From NCBI GenBank assembly GCA_964357525.1, contig CAYHLH010000002.1, positions 5,287 through 69,286 on the forward strand: a stretch of DNA of 64,000 bases, given 5' to 3'. Source of the DNA: an uncultured Candidatus Saccharibacteria bacterium (GTDB lineage Bacteria; Patescibacteriota; Minisyncoccia; UBA6257; GWB1-50-10). This document shows, piece after piece, positions 4,589 through 58,596 of the stretch. A program made the position numbers and the translations under genes. Position 1 is the stretch's first letter, and each line of letters starts with the position of its first letter. The notes below the pieces were generated by a model. That model had not been told where the DNA came from. It searched no databases and saw nothing but the letters and a program-made list of their open reading frames with translations.

Positions 4589-4975
4589 GTGGGTATGTTG
4601 CTCAAAAACAGGTTCGTTCCAATTCTGCTGGTCCTTTTGATTTTCGGTGTCGGCATATATCTCGCCTATATCTACACGTTTTCGGAGCGCGCCGGTCAGG
4701 AAACCTCTTCCGAGCGGAACGGCGCTTCCTCGCTTTCCGAGGCCTCGAAGGCGGCGGTGGATGCGTACCTAAGGGGGCACATTTCGGAGCTTTCCACGGA
4801 ACCCGAGGTGCTCGGCGGGAAGTTCTACGTGACGGACATCGCGTTCCTTTCCGACACCCGGGCCAGGGTGTGGTACGAGGACGGGCACAACGCGTTCAAG
4901 GCGGAATTCGATTTCTTCATCAATGCTGACAACGAGGTGCGGGAGGTGAATTTCAGGGTGATCCAACGTAACTGA
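4589..4975 (+). CDS. Hypothetical membrane-anchored protein
   Basis: N-terminal TM helix. ATG lies 6 nt after TTGCTACAAT (extended -10), suggesting a leaderless transcript. Confidence 0.5.
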   Translation: MGMLLKNRFVPILLVLLIFGVGIYLAYIYTFSERAGQETSSERNGASSLSEASKAAVDAYLRGHISELSTEPEVLGGKFYVTDIAFLSDTRARVWYEDGHNAFKAEFDFFINADNEVREVNFRVIQRN

Positions 4976-5018
4976 CTGTTGCGTAATTCCACTAAATTCG
5001 TAGAGTAATACTGCCTGT

Positions 5019-5090
5019 GGCCCCATCGTCTAGTGGTTAGGACAACGCTCTTTCAAGGCGTAAACACGGGTCCGATTCCCGTTGGGGCTG
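5019..5090 (+). tRNA. tRNA-Glu (TTC)
   Basis: Cloverleaf: acceptor GGCCCCA/TGGGGCT, anticodon stem ACGCT/GGCGT with loop CTTTCAA, T-arm ACGGGTCCGATTCCCGT. Confidence 0.8.
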
Positions 5091-5250
5091 CAAACACAAA
5101 AATCTCCTAATCAAGGAGATTTTTGTGTTTGCTTTCCTAGGAATCGGACCGTTTTACCCCCGTGTCGGATTGAATTGAAAACCGAGGGTTTTCAAAGTCA
5201 GGGGGTCGGGGGCAAAACATGTGTTTATGTCCGATTCCCGTTGGGGCTGC
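5091..5250 (+). repeat. tRNA-Glu 3'-attached element: terminator-like hairpin, inverted copy of the T-arm, G-rich GGGGGTCGGGG motif, direct repeat of the last 22 nt of tRNA-Glu
   Basis: Hairpin ACACAAAAATCTCC-TAATCA-AGGAGATTTTTGTGT (5094-5128). GGAATCGGACC at 5140-5150 is the reverse complement of the T-loop GGTCCGATTCC. GTCCGATTCCCGTTGGGGCTGC at 5229-5250 duplicates 5069-5090. Confidence 0.55.
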
Positions 5251-7497: not shown

Positions 7498-7569
7498 TGC
7501 CCTCGAGGGGATTCGAACCTCTATTACAAGATCCGCAATCTTGCGTCCTATCCATTGAACGACGAGGGC
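7498..7569 (-). tRNA. tRNA-Arg (anticodon GCG as read; ACG/GCG ambiguity acknowledged)
   Basis: Reverse complement: acceptor GCCCTCG/CGAGGGC, D-loop AATGGATAG, anticodon stem CAAGA/TCTTG with loop TTGCGGA, T-loop TTCGAAT. Confidence 0.7.
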
Positions 7570-7613: not shown

Positions 7614-7690
7614 CCCAGTAGAATCACGGCTGCGCCGTAGCTCTACCGGGCCCACCCCTTTTCGGAGGTTTTTCCTCTCTTGCTATAATG
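7614..7690 (+). promoter_or_regulatory. Degenerate type-A hairpin (CCCAGTAGA...TCTACCGGG) followed by TTGCTATAAT at the sigma-factor gene start
   Basis: CCCAGTAGAATCACGGCTGCGCCGTAGCTCTACCGGG at 7614-7650, then CTTGCTATAATG at 7680-7690. Same architecture as the elements at 15508, 19404 and 22290. Confidence 0.4.
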
Positions 7691-12812: not shown

Positions 12813-12897
12813 TTTCGCGACGTTTTATTCAGTATAGCATAAAAGATGCAAAAAACATGATTTCTCATACCCAAGGTCTTTTCTCCGCTTTTCTCCA

Positions 12898-12933
12898 CGC
12901 GGTCTGATTAATCAGACCGCGCCGTGGTATAAT
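12898..12933. promoter_or_regulatory. 24-bp perfect palindrome CGCGGTCTGATTAATCAGACCGCG followed by CCGTGGTATAAT (extended -10); operator-like site upstream of the frameshifted TrpR-like gene
   Basis: Perfect dyad centred on TTAA, the same centre as the E. coli trp operator CTAGTTAACTAG. Architecture identical to 1511-1546 but with a different half-site sequence. Confidence 0.5.
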
Positions 12934-12996
12934 AATCAATGATGATGTTTATTGTTGGCGTTGTTAAAACAGCAATAAAAACCTTTTCTCAAAAAC

Positions 12997-13372
12997 ATGG
13001 TTCGCGTAAATAGGACTCAATTCCCAAGCGCGTTACGCCGAGAGGCATGGCAGAAGTTCTGGAAAATCGTGAGAAGTTCCCCGTCGCCGGAGGTGCTCGC
13101 GCGAGATCTCTCGGCATTTTTCTCCCCCTCGGAAATCGCCGTGCTTGAAAAGAGGCTTGCGATATTACTTCTCCTTGAAAAGGGCGCGGCCTATCGGGAA
13201 ATCGGACGCACTATATGATGTTACAAGGGGTACGGTGAGTTTTGTTAAGCATCACTTCGTGAAAAAACCGCGCGTACACCGGAAATATTCACCACTGCCA
13301 AAAAGGGAATCTTCATATATTCCGCCACCGGGGACACTACGATCACTAAAACGCCACTTTAAAGAAAAATAA
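12997..13372 (+). pseudogene. TrpR-like (YerC/YecD) regulator paralog interrupted by a +1 frameshift
   Basis: Frame A gives MVRVNRTQF...LEKRLAILLLLEKGAAYREIGRTI then a stop. Frame +1 continues YDVTRGTVSFVKHHFVKKP..., colinear with ...REIGRMIDVSSTTINSIKHHFVKKP of the 1560 gene. This is either a 1-nt indel or a sequencing error. Confidence 0.55.
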
Positions 13373-13437
13373 ATTTTTCTCTCTAACTCCATCTTTCCCT
13401 CCGTCTTTTCTTTTTCTTCTATGTGTCCCCTCCACCA

Positions 13438-13461
13438 CGCGGTCTGATTAATCAGACCGCG
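13438..13461. promoter_or_regulatory. Second copy of the palindrome CGCGGTCTGATTAATCAGACCGCG
   Basis: Identical 24-bp dyad, 65 nt downstream of the pseudogene. Confidence 0.5.
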
Positions 13462-13630
13462 TTGGATTTCGGTTTTAACCGGTTTATTTGATTATTCCTG
13501 CATCTTACATTTGATTGTTCCCGCATCTTACAAAAGAAAGAAAAGAAATGAAACTCCGCTGGCTTGCGCCCGTGGTTTCTTTTGGCTACAAGCTCAGTTT
13601 GACCCAGGTCTTCCAATAATATGCGACACA

Positions 13631-15507: not shown

Positions 15508-15577
15508 CCCGGTAGTAGAACCGCGACAGGTTCTCCACCTTTGGGTAGTCGCGGTACACTACCGGGTTTGCTACAAT
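15508..15577 (+). promoter_or_regulatory. Type-A hairpin (CCCGGTAGTAGAACCGCGACAG...TAGTCGCGGTACACTACCGGG) followed by extended -10 TTTGCTACAAT
   Basis: Long inverted repeat with termini CCCGGTAGTAG / CTACTACCGGG, then the TGnTACAAT box. Its predicted transcript starts at about the ATG of the type-B element at 15585. Confidence 0.55.
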
Positions 15578-15584
15578 GAAACAT

Positions 15585-15718
15585 ATGCCCAGTAATACAA
15601 CTTCAATTCGCTTTGCGAAAAAGTGATTGAAGCACAGTTGCTGGGGAAAGTCGCAGTACAAACAAAAAGTTAAAAACACCTTGTCGCGGTGTAACCAATT
15701 GAAGTTGATATACTGGGT
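15585..15718 (+). mobile_element. Type-B inverted-repeat element, ORF-less derivative (MITE-like) of the GIY-YIG element at 63224-63544; its 3' end abuts the ATG of the 15719 gene
   Basis: ATG-CCCAGTAATACAACTTCAATTCG...CCAATTGAAGTTGATATACTGGGT-ATG. First 7 codons MPSNTTS identical to the GIY-YIG gene start, then a stop after 13 codons. About 23 bp terminal stem with a 3-nt central mismatch. Confidence 0.6.
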
Positions 15719-17179
15719 ATGAAAAATAAAAGGGAAATTGTATTTATTTTAGTCGGCGTGGCGTTCCTACTCTTCGTCCTTGTTTCCATGGGGGTGTTCC
15801 GGAATCTCGGGCAGCAGGTGGCCCAGGAGTTCTATGTGAACGCGAAGGGAGAGAAGTGGACGCTTCCGGACGGGAAGTACGAGTTCACGGTGAGCGCGAG
15901 CGGCTATCCGCGATTCCTAGGTGGAGTGATAGACCCCGTGAAAGTAAAAGTGGGAGATACGCAGACGATGACGGTCCGCGTCGCGAGCCCGGTGCCGATA
16001 GAGAGCGTCGTCGCTGAAATTCAAACGGACACAAAGACGCAGGAAATCGCGCTCACACTCGTGGAGAACAAGGCACTTTCGGGAGAGTATTTTGAAAACC
16101 AACCATACCTCATTGACGACAGCGGGGAGCTCATCATCAACAGGGCGAACTCAAGCTATGCGGAGAAGGCGATAAAGCAATTGGTCGCGAGCGCGGAGGC
16201 ACAATCCCTCGTAGAATATGTCTTTGAGGGCGAGTGGGTGGTAAACGACACGCATACGAAGCTTTACCACACGAAGTTCACGGCGACGGATGAGGACGGC
16301 AATGCCGACGAGCTCATTCTCGCGTGGTCCGACCCTGTGTGCAATTTTCTTACTGATGTTGATGGCACCGGATTACTTCAAGGAGACTGTTCAGTAACCA
16401 ACGGAGTTGAGGGTTTTGACGGGGCAAATCTTAGTTTGAATGGACATCAGGTAACTCTTTCCGGTACTTCCTCTCTCATCTGGAACGGGGATGCCGAAGG
16501 CAATCGGTCGCTCATCATAGGAGGGGGAAGCATCAGTATCGGCAACGGCACGCAGGTGAAGGAAGCGCTTCTGTGGTACACCGACCTTGATGCGGATACC
16601 TTTACGGCGGATTTGGGAACAATACACTACGAAGATTGTTCTCTGCCGCCGTGCCCGCAGAGGGTGCGCGTTAAAGATTCTCCATCGCGACCGTGGTTCA
16701 CTCCCGCCTTGGCAAACGGTCTTGACTGTCTCGACGACCCGACTATCGGGGATTTCAAGGCGGTTGACGTTCATCCCCAGCTTCCCGGGGAGGAGAAGTA
16801 TTTCGAGGATTTCTACAACGCGGGAGTGACAAACCCACAGAGTTACGACTACGACTGTTCCGGCGCGGCGACCGGAGGATGGGGAAATAATGTTCCCACC
16901 GATATAACCTCAACAACCCTCGTCTACTTCGACATAATAAGCGGCGGTGACGACCAGGGCGGCGGCAAGCAGTTATGCAATACAGGAGCGACCATAGAGG
17001 ATTTCTCTTCGTACTGCGGTACTCTCTCTCCTTCCACTTTCATACGGTGCGATGTTGGGCTCATTACCGGCGGTGGCGTGGGGAGCCCGGAGATTTTTCC
17101 TCCAGACCTTGAAAACGGATGGATGTACGGCACGTGCACCGAATGCATCGGCGTCTCGGTCGCCGGATTCTGCCACTGA
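15719..17179 (+). CDS. Secreted/membrane-anchored hypothetical protein with Cys-rich C-terminal region
   Basis: N-terminal signal anchor. C-terminus has multiple CxxC-like cysteines (CDVGLITGGGVGSPEIFPPDLENGWMYGTCTECIGVSVAGFCH). Confidence 0.55.
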   Translation: MKNKREIVFILVGVAFLLFVLVSMGVFRNLGQQVAQEFYVNAKGEKWTLPDGKYEFTVSASGYPRFLGGVIDPVKVKVGDTQTMTVRVASPVPIESVVAEIQTDTKTQEIALTLVENKALSGEYFENQPYLIDDSGELIINRANSSYAEKAIKQLVASAEAQSLVEYVFEGEWVVNDTHTKLYHTKFTATDEDGNADELILAWSDPVCNFLTDVDGTGLLQGDCSVTNGVEGFDGANLSLNGHQVTLSGTSSLIWNGDAEGNRSLIIGGGSISIGNGTQVKEALLWYTDLDADTFTADLGTIHYEDCSLPPCPQRVRVKDSPSRPWFTPALANGLDCLDDPTIGDFKAVDVHPQLPGEEKYFEDFYNAGVTNPQSYDYDCSGAATGGWGNNVPTDITSTTLVYFDIISGGDDQGGGKQLCNTGATIEDFSSYCGTLSPSTFIRCDVGLITGGGVGSPEIFPPDLENGWMYGTCTECIGVSVAGFCH

Positions 17180-19403: not shown

Positions 19404-19471
19404 CCCAGTAGTAGAACCGCGACAGCCCTTGCCGGAAAATGGTCGCAGTTCACTACTGGGTTTGCTATACT
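19404..19471 (+). promoter_or_regulatory. Type-A hairpin (CCCAGTAGTAGAACCGCGACAG...TCGCAGTTCACTACTGGG) followed by extended -10 TTTGCTATACT; a second TTTGCTATAAT box at 19498-19508 lies 8 nt before the ATG
   Basis: Inverted repeat with termini CCCAGTAGT / ACTACTGGG, read directly. Promoter boxes TGCTATACT and TGCTATAAT. Confidence 0.55.
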
Positions 19472-22289: not shown

Positions 22290-22430
22290 CCCAGTAGTAG
22301 CACTGCGACACATTTTGCGCCTCCAGTGGATTTTTCAGAAAACATCGGAATGGCGTTATAAAATAATATATTCAACTGTATCAATGACATGTTAGAGGCA
22401 GTCGCAGTCCACTACTGGGTTTGCTATACT
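22290..22430 (+). promoter_or_regulatory. Type-A hairpin (CCCAGTAGTAGCACTGCGACA...CAGTCGCAGTCCACTACTGGG, loop of about 90 nt) followed by TTTGCTATACT; ATG of the downstream gene lies 7 nt after the -10 hexamer
   Basis: Inverted-repeat termini identical to the 19404 copy. A leaderless arrangement is predicted. Confidence 0.55.
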
Positions 22431-28139: not shown

Positions 28140-28430
28140 ATGGCCATTGTTGTTCAGGAGGAAAAGAAGCCGGTGAATTGGATAGGGATGCTGACCGTGG
28201 TGTTTCTCGTCGTCGCGCTCTTCGTGCTTTCCTATTTCCTTTTCTTCAAGCGTCCGGAGGTCATCGAGCAGGTGACCCCCAAGAAGTTCGACGACATCAA
28301 CAAGATCTCGCGGATCTCATTCGATCCGGAGGCGATCGTCTCGTCGGAGTCGTTCCAAGCGCTCAAAAACTACGCACCGTCGTTCGTCCCGCGCGAAACA
28401 CCAGGGAAGCCCAATCCGTTTCGCCCGTAA
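28140..28430 (+). CDS. Small membrane protein (pilus cluster, PilP-like position)
   Basis: 96 aa with one TM helix. Stop at 28430 immediately precedes the type-B element. Confidence 0.4.
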   Translation: MAIVVQEEKKPVNWIGMLTVVFLVVALFVLSYFLFFKRPEVIEQVTPKKFDDINKISRISFDPEAIVSSESFQALKNYAPSFVPRETPGKPNPFRP

Positions 28431-28439
28431 GGTTCTCCC

Positions 28440-28574
28440 ATGCCCGGTAATACAACTTCGATGCGCTCCGTGAAAAATGAATCGAAGTGTAATGCCTTTG
28501 GAAATTAATGACACGAGTAAATATCAAAATTACATTAGTCGCGGTGATAACCAATCGAAGTTGATATACCGGGC
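28440..28574 (+). mobile_element. Type-B inverted-repeat element (ORF-less derivative of the GIY-YIG element), filling the whole intergenic space between the 28140 gene stop and the pilB ATG
   Basis: CATG-CCCGGTAATACAACTTCGATGCG...CGCGGTGATAACCAATCGAAGTTGATATACCGGGC-ATG. Keeps codons MPGNTTS then a stop after 23 codons. Arms carry compensatory changes relative to the 15585 copy (A/T to G/C at two stem positions). Confidence 0.6.
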
Positions 28575-30320
28575 ATGACCGATCAGGACTTGGTGAAGGA
28601 ACTCGTGGGGGCGTCGCTCCTCTCCGACACGGAAGGGGCGAAATTGTTGCATGACGCCGAGACAAGCAAGAAGCCGGTGGAGGATTTCATCTATGACGGC
28701 CATCTCGTCGACGACGTGGCCGTCGCGAAGGCGAAGGCGAAGCTCCTGGGAGTCCCTTTCAGGCGCGCGGACGTTTCAACCATTCCAGATGCGCTATTGA
28801 AGCTCATCCCGCAGGAGACCTCGGAGAACTACAAGGTCATCCCGATGGAACGCAAGGGGAACATGCTCGTGGTGGGGATGCTAAATCCATTGGACGAGCG
28901 CGCCCAGGAGGCGCTCCGCTTCATCGCGAAGCGGGAGCGCGTGAGCCTTGGGGTGTATCTCATCCCCATTTCGGACCTCAGGGAGGCGTGGCGCAAATAC
29001 AAGCCGTACAAATCCGAGCTCGAAGAACTCGTGACGAGCGTGTCAAAGTCCATGAAGGGCGAGAAGTCCGCACTGGTTTCGCTCGACGAGGCGTCAAGGA
29101 CCTCTTCGGAGGACGCGCCCATAATCAAGATGGTCGCAAAAACCCTGCAGAACGCAGTTGAAGGACTCGCCTCGGACATTCACATAGAGCCCGGCAGAAC
29201 CGCTCTTAGAATACGCTTCCGCGTCGACGGCGACCTTAAGGAGGTTGCGTCGCTTCCAACTATGTTGGCTCAGCCCATCGTCTCGCGTGTTAAGGTCCTC
29301 GCAAACCTGCGCCTCGACGAAAACCGAATTCCGCAGGACGGACGGTTCCGGACCATAATTCAGAACCGGGAAATCGATTTCCGCGTCGCGACATTCCCTG
29401 TTCCGACCGGCGAAAAGGTGGTGCTCCGCGTGCTCGATCCGCTTACTGGCCTCAAAGGTCTGGAGAGCCTCGGATTCGAGGACTACAATTTCAAAAAAAT
29501 ACAGGCGGCCGTCGCCGCGCCGTACGGGATGATAATCATTTCCGGCCCCACGGGGAGCGGGAAGACGACGACCCTGTACGCCATCATGAAGAAGATGGAC
29601 GCCGTGACGCAGAACATCGTGACTTTGGAGGATCCGGTGGAATACACCATGGACGGCATCAACCAATCGCAGGTGAAGCCCGAGATTGGTTACACGTTCG
29701 CTTCGGGCCTGCGGCAGATCCTCCGCCAGGACCCCGACGTGGTCATGGTCGGCGAGATCCGCGACGACGAGACGGCCGGCTTGGCGGTGAATGCGGCCTT
29801 GACGGGACACGTCGTCCTTTCCACCTTGCACACCAATAACGCCATCGGCGTAATTCCTCGGCTCGTAGACTTGGGCGTGGCGAAATTTCTCTTGCCATCG
29901 GCGTTGCACACCATGCTAGCCCAGCGCCTGCTTTCACACCTCTGCCCGGAGTGCCGGAAAAAAGATGTAGCTCCGACGGAATTGCAGGCGATAATTGCAG
30001 GCGAGATAAAAAAACTCCCGGCGGAGACTCGGGAAAAGGTTGTCTCCGAATTCGGCAAAAGCGCGTACGAGACGTACCGCACCGAACCGAAGGACACGTG
30101 CAAAGTGTGCAAGGGAAAGGGCATTGTAGGCAGGATTGCCATAACCGAGGTGTTCCAGATGACGCGCGAGCTCGGAACGATTATTGCCGAAGGATTCTCC
30201 GAGGACAAGCTGTATAAGGAAGCAGAGAGGCAGGGAATGATTTCAATGAGGGCTGATGGCATCGTGAAGGCACTGAAAGGCGAAGTGCTCATAGAAGAGG
30301 TGCTCCGCGAGACGGAGTAG
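28575..30320 (+). CDS. pilB: Type IV pilus assembly ATPase PilB (GspE family)
   Basis: N-terminal GSPII_E N domain, Walker A GPTGSGKTTTLYA, Asp box, His box, and a C-terminal tetracysteine motif (CPECRKK...CKVCKGKG). Confidence 0.9.
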   Translation: MTDQDLVKELVGASLLSDTEGAKLLHDAETSKKPVEDFIYDGHLVDDVAVAKAKAKLLGVPFRRADVSTIPDALLKLIPQETSENYKVIPMERKGNMLVVGMLNPLDERAQEALRFIAKRERVSLGVYLIPISDLREAWRKYKPYKSELEELVTSVSKSMKGEKSALVSLDEASRTSSEDAPIIKMVAKTLQNAVEGLASDIHIEPGRTALRIRFRVDGDLKEVASLPTMLAQPIVSRVKVLANLRLDENRIPQDGRFRTIIQNREIDFRVATFPVPTGEKVVLRVLDPLTGLKGLESLGFEDYNFKKIQAAVAAPYGMIIISGPTGSGKTTTLYAIMKKMDAVTQNIVTLEDPVEYTMDGINQSQVKPEIGYTFASGLRQILRQDPDVVMVGEIRDDETAGLAVNAALTGHVVLSTLHTNNAIGVIPRLVDLGVAKFLLPSALHTMLAQRLLSHLCPECRKKDVAPTELQAIIAGEIKKLPAETREKVVSEFGKSAYETYRTEPKDTCKVCKGKGIVGRIAITEVFQMTRELGTIIAEGFSEDKLYKEAERQGMISMRADGIVKALKGEVLIEEVLRETE

Positions 30321-50270: not shown

Positions 50271-50525
50271 ATGATAGACGTAACGCGTCTCATAAAGGTC
50301 AGCGCCGCGTGGGTGTCACTGGTCTACGCCGTGTGCTTTGCCGGCGTCGCGATGTTTCCTAACATCCGTCCGGGATTCATGCGGTATGGGCTCCATATGG
50401 GAATCGATTTCGGACGGAACATTTTGACGTTTGGAACTTTCCTCTCCGGCCTCATTATCTGGAATGTCATTGCGCTTCTTGGGGTCTGGCTTTTTGCCGC
50501 TTTGTGGAACTCGATAAAAAAATGA
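50271..50525 (+). CDS. Small polytopic membrane protein, paralog A (84 aa)
   Basis: MIDVTRLIKVSAAWVSLVYAVCFAGVAMFPNIRPGFM...FGTFLSGLIIWNVIALLGVWLFAALWNSIKK. About 80 percent identical to the 57188 gene product. Confidence 0.5.
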   Translation: MIDVTRLIKVSAAWVSLVYAVCFAGVAMFPNIRPGFMRYGLHMGIDFGRNILTFGTFLSGLIIWNVIALLGVWLFAALWNSIKK

Positions 50526-57187: not shown

Positions 57188-57445
57188 ATGATAGCAACCA
57201 AACGCCTGCTCAAAGTTACCGCCGCGTGGATAAGCGTCGTGTACGCGGTTTGTTTTGCCGGTGTGGCGCTTTTCCCGAACATCCGTCCGGGATTCATGCG
57301 CTCCGCCTTGCATGTGGTGGGGGTGGATCTGGGCATTGATGTGCTCACCTTCGGCACGTTCCTGTCTGGCCTCATCATCTGGAACGTCATCGCGCTCCTC
57401 GCGGTGTGGCTCTTTGCGGCGCTCTACAACGGCATAAAGAAATAA
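57188..57445 (+). CDS. Small polytopic membrane protein, paralog B (85 aa)
   Basis: MIATKRLLKVTAAWISVVYAVCFAGVALFPNIRPGFM...FGTFLSGLIIWNVIALLAVWLFAALYNGIKK. Confidence 0.5.
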   Translation: MIATKRLLKVTAAWISVVYAVCFAGVALFPNIRPGFMRSALHVVGVDLGIDVLTFGTFLSGLIIWNVIALLAVWLFAALYNGIKK

Positions 57446-57474
57446 GAAGCGGATACAATTTGTATTTCCCCGCT

Positions 57475-57688
57475 CGCTCGGAAATGTAGGTATAACCACC
57501 CCCATTTCCTCGCTCGCCAGGTTATGGCGGAATGAAATTCCTTGGTAACCTAGTTCGCTCGGAAATGTAGGTATAACCACCCCCATTTCCTCGCTCGCCA
57601 GGTTATGGCGGAATGAAATTCCTTGGTAACCTAGTTCGCTCGGAAATGTAGGTATAACCACCCCCATTTCCTCGCTCGCCAGGTTATA
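57475..57688. repeat. 81-bp tandem repeat, 2.6 copies, copies 1 and 2 identical
   Basis: Unit CGCTCGGAAATGTAGGTATAACCACCCCCATTTCCTCGCTCGCCAGGTTATGGCGGAATGAAATTCCTTGGTAACCTAGTT at 57475, 57556 and 57637 (partial). The partial third copy ends in AGGTTATAATG, creating a TATAAT box 9 nt before the GTG start of the 57697 gene. Confidence 0.85.
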
Positions 57689-57696
57689 ATGAGTTT

Positions 57697-58596
57697 GTGA
57701 AGGAAAAGAAAAGTTTCTTAATGCGGCTTGTTTCCGCGGTCATCATCGGACTCGTCGCCGTTCTCGGTTATTACGGGTATCAATACTATATTCTCTCAGA
57801 CGAACTCCTACGGACCCGAGACGAGTTCCGCAGAACGGTTTCCGATTTTGAGAATCGGGTTTCGGCGCTTCAGGCGGAGCTCGAGGCGGCGAAAAACGAG
57901 AACGCGGATCTTTCGGTGAAGCTCGCCGCCGAACAGGGGAAGAATGCCATGTTTGCGGAGCAGATTTCGGGCATTGCGGGCACAGTGGGCATTTTGGAAA
58001 AGCTTTCAAAGACCGACAAGGAGCTCCTGCAGAAATATTCCAAGATCTATTTTCTGAACGAGCACTACATACCCGAGGCGCTTGTCCAAATAGCAAAGAC
58101 ATATCTCTCGGGTGGGAACGACGAGGAGTGGATACACGCCCGCGCGTGGCCGCGCCTCCAGACGATGCTCGACGCCGCCTCGCGCGACGGCGTTACCCTC
58201 AAAGTCGTTTCCGGGTACCGCTCCTTCGACACGCAGGCGGATCTGAAATACGGATACCGCGTCTCCTACGGTTCCGGCGCGAACCAGTTCTCCGCGGACC
58301 AGGGATATTCCGAGCACCAGCTCGGCACCGCGGTGGACCTCACGACGCCCTCAATGGGAACGTCCCTCACGACGCAGTTCGAGAAGAAGCCGGAGTACGG
58401 CTGGCTTGTCGCGAACGCCTACCGATACGGGTTTACGCTCTCGTACCCCAAAGGGAACGCATACTACCAGTTCGAGCCGTGGCATTGGCGGTATGTCGGG
58501 GTCGCCTTAGCGACGAAGCTCAAGAACGACGGGAAATATTTCTACGACCTTGACCAGCGCGAGATCGATGCCTACCTCGTGAGCATCTTCGATTAG
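57697..58596 (+). CDS. D-alanyl-D-alanine carboxypeptidase, VanY/peptidase M15B family, membrane-anchored
   Basis: Zn-binding motifs SEHQLGTAVDL and EPWHWRYVG. N-terminal TM plus coiled-coil. GTG start. Confidence 0.75.
   Translation: MKEKKSFLMRLVSAVIIGLVAVLGYYGYQYYILSDELLRTRDEFRRTVSDFENRVSALQAELEAAKNENADLSVKLAAEQGKNAMFAEQISGIAGTVGILEKLSKTDKELLQKYSKIYFLNEHYIPEALVQIAKTYLSGGNDEEWIHARAWPRLQTMLDAASRDGVTLKVVSGYRSFDTQADLKYGYRVSYGSGANQFSADQGYSEHQLGTAVDLTTPSMGTSLTTQFEKKPEYGWLVANAYRYGFTLSYPKGNAYYQFEPWHWRYVGVALATKLKNDGKYFYDLDQREIDAYLVSIFD

Follow-up and report, generated by a model that had tools for sequence, protein, structure and literature searches.

The window analysed here, a stretch of 64,000 nucleotides from a Candidatus Saccharibacteria contig, contains a pilus gene cluster in which genes for PilM and PilO-like proteins (assigned by Pfam) precede a gene for a protein of 96 amino acids and pilB (Table 1). 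The homologues of this PilB align along 100% of their length. Between the 96-aa gene and pilB lies an AT-rich repeat block, termed a type B element in the following, whose 20-nt arms are paired at 17 of 20 positions. The repeat ends with ...TATACCGGGC at position 28574 and the ATG of pilB follows directly at 28575. A first-pass annotation of the region had described the repeat as flush with both neighboring genes. This is correct on the side of the pilB ATG, while on the other side eight spacer bases (ggttctcc) and the left CATG separate the element from the upstream TAA (28428-28430), such that the first ATG (28440) is located 9 nt past that stop. The sequence of the repeat was confirmed, the mini-ORF proposed within it is real, and in agreement with the earlier description no Shine-Dalgarno sequence precedes the pilB AUG. 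The stop of the mini-ORF is 66 nt away from the pilB ATG. When up to three mismatches were allowed, the arm motif matched four times in the window as compared to zero matches in 100 shuffles.

Table 1. Coordinates of the pilB locus, of its type B element and of related elements in the window.
Feature	Position	Strand	Remarks
Upstream 96-aa gene of the pilus cluster	28140-28430	+	TAA at 28428-28430; without Pfam match
Left target-site duplication CATG	28439-28442	+	Upstream flank ...ctcCCATG
Mini-ORF MPGNTTSMRSVKNESKCNAFGN	28440-28508	+	22 codons plus TAA; begins MPGNTTS
Type B element proper	28443-28573	+	131 nt, CCCGGTA...TACCGGG; non-autonomous, MITE-like
5' arm CCCGGTAATACAACTTCGAT	28443-28462	+	7 paired bases, 3-nt invariant mismatch (ATA), 10 paired bases
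3' arm ATCGAAGTTGATATACCGGG	28554-28573	+	Contains the TGA that ends the nuclease ORF in full-length copies
Right target-site duplication CATG	28574-28577	+	Downstream flank CATGacc; ATG 28575 is the present pilB start
pilB (T4P extension ATPase)	28575-30320	+	Intact, 581 aa; T2SSE (E = 9e-123), MshEN
Second short copy, 130 nt	15588-15717	+	Duplication TATG at 15584-15587 and 15718-15721
Full-length copy, 318 nt	63541-63224	-	Arms CCCAGTAATACAACTTCCAG...CTGGAAGTTGATATACTGGG; flanked ATG/ATG
GIY-YIG nuclease ORF, 103 aa	63233-63544	-	Begins MPSNTTS; sole gene of the full-length copy
Type A hairpin element (sibling), CCCGGTAGTAGAACCGCGAC...GTCGCGGTACACTACCGGG	15508-15566	+	Directly upstream of TTTGCTACAAT
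Type A element	19404-19460	+	Duplication TTTG
Type A element	22290-22419	+	Duplication TTTG; inserted at TTTG of TTTGCTATACT-N7-ATG, gene 22438

The window harbors two further type B elements and three elements of a sibling type, designated type A. The second short copy of type B is situated between the promoter-like sequence TTTGCTACAAT-gaaaca and the ATG of gene 15719-17179, and its removal together with one TATG yields the spacing '-10 box, 7 nt, ATG' that is frequent in this genome. The third copy, on the minus strand, is full-length and wedged between the stop codon of gene 63938-63546 and the ATG (63223) of gene 63223-62294. Its only ORF starts on the duplicated host ATG outside of the 5' arm and terminates at a TGA within the 3' arm; the ATG of the host gene follows after 9 nt. 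Both the N-terminal MPSNTTS and the C-terminal GS-stop of the encoded nuclease are thus specified by the arms. As this ORF starts with MPSNTTS in the same arm, the mini-ORF preceding pilB is the stump of a nuclease gene, a relic that corresponds to the first seven codons. Among the three copies, the arms have undergone compensating changes (CGAT/ATCG, CAAT/ATTG and CCAG/CTGG as well as CCCGG/CCGGG vs. CCCAG/CTGGG).

The first-pass annotation had considered the block before pilB as a precise insertion of a repeat into the operon, and the comparison with related genomes bears this out. PilB homologues were ranked and the contigs of six relatives (L118-L123) were compared at the junction between the 96-aa gene and pilB. 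Gene order is kept in all six, and none of the six carries a type B element before pilB. In L121, L122 and L123, with PilB identities of 74, 73 and 72%, respectively, the site is empty: the two genes are merely 3-7 nt apart and joined by TAGcctcATG, TAAtcaATG and TAAttttcatATG. In the closest relatives, i.e., L118, L119 and L120 (86, 82 and 88% PilB identity), the site is not empty but occupied by AT-rich palindromic fillers of 92-126 nt. These fillers are unrelated to the element; the L118 filler is homologous to that of L119, and both terminate with a -10-like hexamer, 7 nt and the ATG. Taking the element and one CATG out of the window sequence leaves a 9-nt junction (TAAggttctccCATGacc), and the reconstructed junction TAAggttctccCATG is tight and of the same kind as in L121-L123. 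A search of the JGI metagenomes for the reconstructed empty allele of this species returned no match. The identical insertion is also present in L144, which was assembled independently from the same aquifer and shows 8 mismatches in 2212 nt; the insertion is therefore not an assembly artefact. Duplication and empty sites show that the element inserted into the CATG holding the pilB start codon and thereby duplicated this tetranucleotide. The ATG at 28440-28442 is the original start codon of pilB and now opens the mini-ORF, while the AAGG located 7 nt before it and overlapped by the stop codon of the 96-aa gene is probably, as judged from its position, the original pilB ribosome-binding site. 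Instead of being confined to this position in relatives, as the earlier annotation had reasoned for an ancestral leader, copies of the element occur at unrelated genes in the window as well as, among the matches listed, in dozens of MAGs of the Patescibacteria, and on these comparisons the sequence from 28443 to 28573 is not a pilB leader.

A scan of one genome per species for CCCRGTAATACAACTTC yielded at least 117 loci, and among the matches listed at least 95 occurrences have a matching 3' arm 62-324 nt downstream. With a single exception from a MAG labelled as Gammaproteobacteria, the 95 listed copies stem from Patescibacteria- or Saccharibacteria-labelled MAGs (94 copies); labels among the matches listed comprise Doudna-, Azam-, Kerfeld-, Terry- and Yanofskybacteria, Saccharibacteria and Parcubacteria. 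A further 27 hits among the matches listed come without a 3' arm. At least four of them are cut by the end of the locus and nearly all of the rest lie outside of the Patescibacteria; according to our estimate, the 17-nt arm pattern can be expected to produce chance matches of this sort in 596 Gb of sequence.

Together with the three copies from the window, the 95 copies among the matches listed formed the set of 98 complete copies on which the following statements are based. Their sizes amount to 120-170 nt in 61 cases, 171-260 nt in 21, 290-324 nt in 11 and less than 100 nt in five. The full-length form of about 310-324 bp encodes a single protein, and the longest members measure 307-324 nt. 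Of the 98 copies, 78 are flanked by exact direct repeats of 4 bp or more and 85 by repeats of 3 bp or more. TATG is the commonest duplication (47 copies), and others include ATGA, CATG, CATA, TATA, TGTG, CACG, CTTG, CAAG, TCAA, CCTA and more. Since the duplicated sequences vary, the repeat is a true target-site duplication and not a part of the element. In the MAG H14-bin029, for example, short copies of one subfamily are found at many different genes, and short copies have therefore multiplied as short copies. Structurally, the pilB copy is a MITE in all respects: it is short and, apart from the 22-codon relic ORF, devoid of coding capacity, its 20-nt terminal inverted repeats belong to an anatomy shared by all 98 copies, it is flanked by CATG on either side with empty sites in relatives, and dispersed copies (15588, 63541(-) and those in many Patescibacteria MAGs) share its ends with a longer coding partner. 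What this partner encodes is not a recognised transposase of the DDE, HUH, serine or tyrosine type but solely a GIY-YIG nuclease.

The nuclease of the full-length copy in the window was identified by Pfam PF01541 (GIY-YIG), for which it scores 56.3 bits (E = 4e-15) where 22.6 would suffice as the curated cut-off. Its homologues have about 101-103 residues and are 60-72% identical, and every source that gives an organism points to a lineage of the Patescibacteria. All of the 25 sequences compared, the window protein among them, share Y15, Y26, G28, Y29, R36 and E72 without variation. An exhaustive profile search retrieved 11,759 cluster representatives at E <= 1e-3 and only four at E <= 1e-30, so that the protein belongs to a tight subfamily inside the very large family of small GIY-YIG proteins. 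The nearest sequences with solved structures are the UPF0213 proteins 1zg2 (profile E = 1.5e-9) and 1ywl. On the basis of an AlphaFold model (pLDDT 80) the nuclease is predicted to adopt the GIY-YIG alpha/beta fold, as a single domain followed by one C-terminal helix. The best structural match is 1zg2, followed by Slx1 (TM about 0.5-0.56 with Slx1 chains), while matches to the N-terminal domains of I-TevI and UvrC are weaker; TIGR01453 gave 17 bits at a cut-off of 56. Neither Pfam nor the model revealed an extra DNA-binding domain of the homing endonuclease kind, i.e., a linker and a C-terminal domain, in the 103-aa protein.

With regard to the arms, base pairs form at positions 1-7 and 11-20 in 88-100% of the 98 copies, and pairing ends at position 20. 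Positions 8-10 form an invariant A.A/T.T/A.A bubble that creates the TGA in the 3' arm. Positions 18-20 covary, with three to four types of Watson-Crick pairs at each position and 93-95% pairing in the same set of copies: GC 48, CG 40 and AT 5 at position 18, AT 69, CG 20 and GC 3 at position 19, and GC 36, TA 34, CG 18 and AT 5 at position 20. Among the roughly 294 pairs at these three positions, there are only two G-T and five A-C combinations.

We consider it probable that the block preceding pilB belongs, as a MITE-like copy, to a family of small mobile elements that is restricted almost entirely to the Patescibacteria (CPR) and mobilised in trans by the GIY-YIG nuclease, the link between nuclease and elements being inferred from their co-location and shared arms. 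The DDE transposases must be weighed against this reading, because terminal inverted repeats and a 4-bp duplication constitute their classic signature. A conventional enzyme of this kind (e.g., IS5, IS1380 or piggyBac-like) would then move the MITE in trans, with the GIY-YIG ORF as a passenger or selfish coloniser. CCC...GGG termini combined with a 4-bp duplication recall piggyBac/IS1380. GIY-YIG enzymes cut DNA, we know of no strand joining or transfer by any of them, which favors a DDE enzyme, and those characterised so far produce short 3' overhangs and not a 5' stagger of 4 nt. However, among the at least 117 loci listed, no copy exceeds 324 nt and no 3' arm is found farther away, so that longer master copies with a transposase, which had been considered as a source of the short ones, were dismissed; between the arms, no gene besides that of the nuclease was present among the matches listed, and specifically none for a transposase. 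In every intact copy listed the nuclease ORF is built into the arms: the duplication supplies its start codon, the 5' arm encodes codons 2-7, and GS-stop comes from the 3' arm. The design of the type B elements recurs in a second arm family (L076, CCCCGTACCACAG...), and the covariation of the arms fits recognition of a hairpin better than binding of double-stranded DNA by a DDE enzyme. Mobilisation by a DDE transposase thus appears unlikely.

The RNA deserves separate consideration. The region of the pilB element folds with -48.4 kcal/mol (z = -4.0), and since CATG is self-complementary the helix takes in both AUGs. The sequestration of the pilB start suggested by the first-pass annotation is thus reproduced, with both AUGs located within the basal helix, and the 5' arm can alternatively pair with an internal ATCGAAGT copy. 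Such properties would suit a cis-regulatory RNA retained by the host for pilB, be it a leader, an attenuator or an mRNA-stabilising 5' hairpin, for which a mobile origin would now be irrelevant. The palindromic fillers of about 100 nt before pilB in the closest relatives point in the same direction, and the strong sense bias of the family, evident among the matches listed and in the window, hints at a constraint at the transcript level. On the other hand, the element is missing before pilB in the six relatives, the same element precedes dozens of unrelated genes among the matches listed, and G-U pairs are nearly absent at positions 18-20. Only the arms are conserved: interiors proved lineage-specific in a MAFFT alignment of 60 short copies among the matches listed, and in the full-length copies listed they are 56-82% identical while the arms are near-identical. 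Rfam reported nothing but tRNAs for the whole window at gathering thresholds and no match for 28380-28640 at E <= 10. A regulatory RNA proper to pilB is therefore very unlikely. Folded as DNA, the plus strand of the pilB element reaches z = -5.1 and the minus strand -5.5. Because wobble pairs are not enriched, the strands show no asymmetry and are equally stable, the interiors are unconserved and Rfam offers no match, we argue from the sequences that selection acts on a hairpin or cruciform of DNA, or at the least on a strict match between the ends, and not on the structure of an RNA.

The element family as a whole is associated with start codons. In 68 of the 98 copies, the element directly adjoins the ATG of an ORF with 60 or more codons, and ATG is contained in 65 of the 85 duplications. 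In 591 kb of element loci, 2353 TATG sites fall in coding sequence, 1145 in non-coding sequence and 295 at ORF starts. Were any TATG acceptable as long as it is non-disruptive, about 20% of the TATG insertions in the set would be expected at starts as compared to about 90% observed. Duplications with ATG in sense (YATG-type) number 57, as opposed to three for CATA, the antisense equivalent. The reconstructed targets include leaderless-type starts, with a -10 box 6-9 nt upstream, as well as starts led by a Shine-Dalgarno sequence. Genes downstream of the elements encode, among the matches listed, the ribosomal proteins L13, L17, S2 and S7, RecA, RuvA, GatB, FtsW, SecG and two aminoacyl-tRNA synthetases, and insertion must be compatible with expression of the downstream gene since ribosomal proteins, RecA and aminoacyl-tRNA synthetases are among the targets. 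In all 13 intact copies from the matches listed and the window, the ORF runs from the upstream duplicated ATG to the TGA in the arm, with 9-10 nt left before the ATG of the host gene. For short copies from the same set, the distance from the mini-ORF stop to the host ATG usually exceeds 40 nt, so that the coupling of the full-length type is lost in most of them; the idea that short copies in general show stop-restart coupling was accordingly rejected, as such coupling applies to 13 of 13 intact but only 6 of 34 short copies. The duplication, the derivation of the mini-ORF from a nuclease gene and the finding that landing on a start codon is a rule throughout the family and not peculiar to pilB go beyond the first-pass annotation. 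A free-standing GIY-YIG cassette that homes into cognate empty alleles after DNA uptake and leaves short copies as in-situ deletion remnants is highly improbable, even though classic homing endonucleases are GIY-YIG enzymes and orthologous targets (RuvA, L13, L17, SecG) recur in distant genomes among the matches listed (nine pairs vs. about three by a rough estimate, too slight an excess, at only about threefold, to decide for site-specific homing), because homing enzymes possess a separate DNA-binding domain, act at one cognate site and generate no duplication, whereas here duplications of varied sequence flank 78 of 98 copies, dozens of host genes are hit among the matches listed, short copies of one subfamily populate many genes within one MAG and the nuclease consists of a catalytic fold of about 100 aa only.

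For mobilisation by the GIY-YIG nuclease, we envisage that the enzyme would recognise the arm hairpin or cruciform as a DNA structure, as suggested by its Slx1-like fold, its lack of a DNA-binding domain and the covariation of the arms. It would introduce 4-nt staggered cuts at YATG-like targets and mobilise full-length as well as short copies, with the reaction being completed by repair and ligation on the part of the host. The full-length element has neither a start codon nor a ribosome-binding site of its own and offers no obvious room for a promoter, and would thus be expressed only after landing in sense on the start of a gene. By duplicating the host YATG, it would take over the expression signals of the host gene, and the stop codon in the 3' arm, 9-10 nt before the regenerated ATG, would hand translation back to that gene. 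With some hesitation, we suggest that the family may represent a new class of minimal autonomous DNA transposon of about 320 bp that uses an Slx1/UPF0213-like GIY-YIG nuclease as its sole enzyme and operates as such a start-codon trap. The sense start-codon rule of full-length copies would follow from their being expressed only there, while short copies need another cause. The bias could reflect targeting, selection for expression or transcript orientation, or protection from deletion in shrinking genomes.

In the pilB mRNA, the arms and the palindromic CATG are predicted to form a two-part helix, with 11 bp on one side of a 3x3 internal loop and 10 bp on the other, which would bury both AUGs. 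Ribosomes may load at the AAGG, 7 nt before the first AUG, translate the mini-ORF of 22 codons and thus melt the 5' arm, which would expose the pilB AUG for re-initiation. Given the distance from the mini-ORF stop, re-initiation at pilB is a speculative step. pilB would remain under its original signals, probably at reduced efficiency. An outward promoter in the 3' arm was considered as well: TTGATATACT resembles the TTTGCTATACT extended -10 box of this genome but is only 4 nt away from the ATG instead of the 6-8 nt of native genes, and the pilB copy reads TATACC; for want of support, the candidate was set aside. The same applies to a sigma-70-like sequence (9/12 match, 28508-28536), which is conserved neither in the other copy nor in the family among the matches listed.

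Several known repeats resemble the element in part. Correia/CREE elements of Neisseria, Rickettsia palindromic elements, RUP/BOX and ERIC are also short (about 130 nt), non-coding and multi-copy, with inverted ends and a duplication; Correia elements duplicate TA, and Rickettsia palindromic elements reside in-frame inside genes. Bacterial MITEs are likewise co-transcribed with their neighbors as long hairpins and have ends in common with a longer coding partner. This partner is an IS with a DDE transposase in their case and a GIY-YIG-only unit of about 320 bp here, where furthermore the 4-bp duplication usually includes the host start codon and insertions are nearly always found in sense and exactly on starts, not merely in intergenic regions. 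In REP/REPIN sequences with RAYT (REPtrons) and in IS200/IS605, a small nuclease gene is likewise bracketed by dispersed hairpin repeats, and a hairpin with conserved mismatched bases is probably recognised, as here. However, RAYT and TnpA are HUH/Y1 enzymes as opposed to GIY-YIG, and REPs and IS200/IS605 have subterminal hairpins, no duplication and no start-codon rule, whereas the element family, which lacks an HUH Y1 enzyme, combines a duplication with one terminal inverted repeat.

Among GIY-YIG proteins, UPF0213/YhbQ and Slx1 are the closest relatives in sequence and fold and share the GIY-YIG core with its conserved Tyr, Arg and Glu. To our knowledge, UPF0213 proteins have neither an assigned function nor an association with repeats; Slx1 differs in that it depends on Slx4 and on a RING domain and serves DNA repair instead of mobility. 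I-TevI and SegA-G of phage T4 are selfish GIY-YIG genes that, as in the present case, are wedged among host genes with minimal damage to expression, and the T4 cassette of mobE and the gene 60 'hop' (HNH) likewise places a hairpin between two identical codons. What is new in comparison with all of these systems is a GIY-YIG enzyme in the place of a transposase, coding sequence in the inverted repeats and the capture of host start codons. A search of the literature outside of the subscription journals returned no description of such an element, and we know of no catalogued insertion-sequence family with a nuclease of the GIY-YIG type.

As a consequence of the insertion, a mobile hairpin now lies between pilB and its probable original ribosome-binding site, and this in an organism that is presumed to rely on pili when it takes up DNA and contacts its host. 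The family occupies the starts of essential genes across many lineages of the Patescibacteria, apparently without killing its hosts. If the proposed new class holds true, these transposons would be smaller than any known insertion sequence, the large orphan family UPF0213/YhbQ would gain a biological role, and the presence of a parasite on the start codons of ribosomal protein genes and recA in the smallest bacterial genomes would be explained. The elements also bear on re-initiation after hairpins of 130-320 nt in organisms where leaderless-type starts appear common, and on the persistence of selfish elements in extremely reduced genomes. With respect to annotation, false mini-ORFs arise from the short copies, and where CPR MAGs seem to have 'long leaders' or starts have been mis-called, type B elements may often be the reason.

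Type A elements constitute a sibling family of the hairpin-ended type B elements, with which they have the tips CCCRGTA/TACYGGG and an internal bubble in common. In the window, they sit exactly at the TTTG of a promoter-like box, TTTGCTAYAMT, and TTTG is duplicated in two of the three copies, while at loci from other metagenomes (L130-L139) the duplications read TATG, CATG, CATA and TCTA. A coding version of type A was not seen in any of 20 metagenome loci. Type-A-like tips are also present on a 37-nt hairpin (CCCAGTAGAATCACGG...CTCTACCGGG, window 7614-7650); this hairpin, perhaps a minimal or degenerate representative of the family, adjoins a tRNA gene (7498-7569, minus strand). Some elements are nested or arranged in tandem: one type B copy harbours a type-A-like hairpin of 73 nt (L014, 276-348), and head-to-tail type B copies with one TATG in common were found at three other loci, L077 (6149-6429), L057 and L102.

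With regard to GIY-YIG genes in other contexts, locus L076 features a second arm family, CCCCGTACCACAG...CTGTGGTACGGGG, around a related GIY-YIG ORF (MPRTTVLNKFHYTYVLES...). Because this unit (4813-5128) is likewise bounded by duplicated TATG and directly abuts a downstream ATG, the start-codon design is not restricted to one arm sequence. More distant small GIY-YIG genes adjoin or lie within tRNA-like sequences, the 5' part of the tRNA being duplicated on both sides, and such sequences appear to be a further class of target of this GIY-YIG protein superfamily.

Positions of type A elements, small GIY-YIG genes at tRNA-like sequences, fillers before pilB and exemplary gene starts
Feature	Source	Position	Strand
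Type A element (CCCRGTAGTAGMACYGCGAC...GTCGCRGTNCACTACYGGG family)	window	15508-15566	
Type A element (CCCRGTAGTAGMACYGCGAC...GTCGCRGTNCACTACYGGG family)	window	19404-19460	
Type A element (CCCRGTAGTAGMACYGCGAC...GTCGCRGTNCACTACYGGG family)	window	22290-22419	
GIY-YIG gene	L003	4658-4940	-
GIY-YIG gene	L004	1855-2128	
GIY-YIG genes, in tandem	L079	2074-2678	
GIY-YIG gene	L021	4194-4467	-
GIY-YIG gene	L038	4990-5755	
Filler before pilB	L118	3909-4000	
Filler before pilB	L119	3875-4000	
Filler before pilB	L120	238-349	
Gene starts with TGnTATAAT-like box (examples)	window	5278, 22438, 30339, 30911 (pilT), 40823, 48816, 58614	

In many genes of the window, a TGnTATAAT-like box precedes the start by 6-8 nt and no Shine-Dalgarno sequence is present, which suggests that leaderless mRNAs are widespread in this organism. 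In other genomes, several targets of type B are starts of similar appearance. In the closest pilB relatives, unrelated AT-rich palindromic fillers of 92-126 nt separate the 96-aa gene from pilB. The L118 and L119 fillers are homologues and terminate in CATAAT or CATACT, with 7 nt between this hexamer and the ATG, an arrangement that resembles a leaderless promoter. The junction ahead of pilB seems to be a site of repeated landing or remodelling.

Contigs of ENA assembly ERZ1292625 ('Hain-H41'; L134, L136 and L144) match the window almost exactly, which makes a groundwater Patescibacterium the probable source. Several of the MAGs in which type B copies abound bear similar names (H14-, H41-, H43-, H52-bin...) and may originate from the same sampling system.

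Among other repeats of the window, a small gene (MVRVN(K/R)TQFP...LEKRLAI..LLE.G..YREIGR) is present in two diverged copies (1498-1981 and 12897-13462); a palindrome pair (GCGCTGCATTTAAATGCAGCG; CCACGCGGTCTGATTAATCAGACCGCG) flanks each of them, and the arrangement may represent another small repeat-flanked cassette. An 81-nt unit occurs three times in tandem at 57474-57716, two copies being identical and one 70% identical, and a separate dispersed pair of 130-nt repeats (50271-50400 and 57188-57317) is 70% identical.
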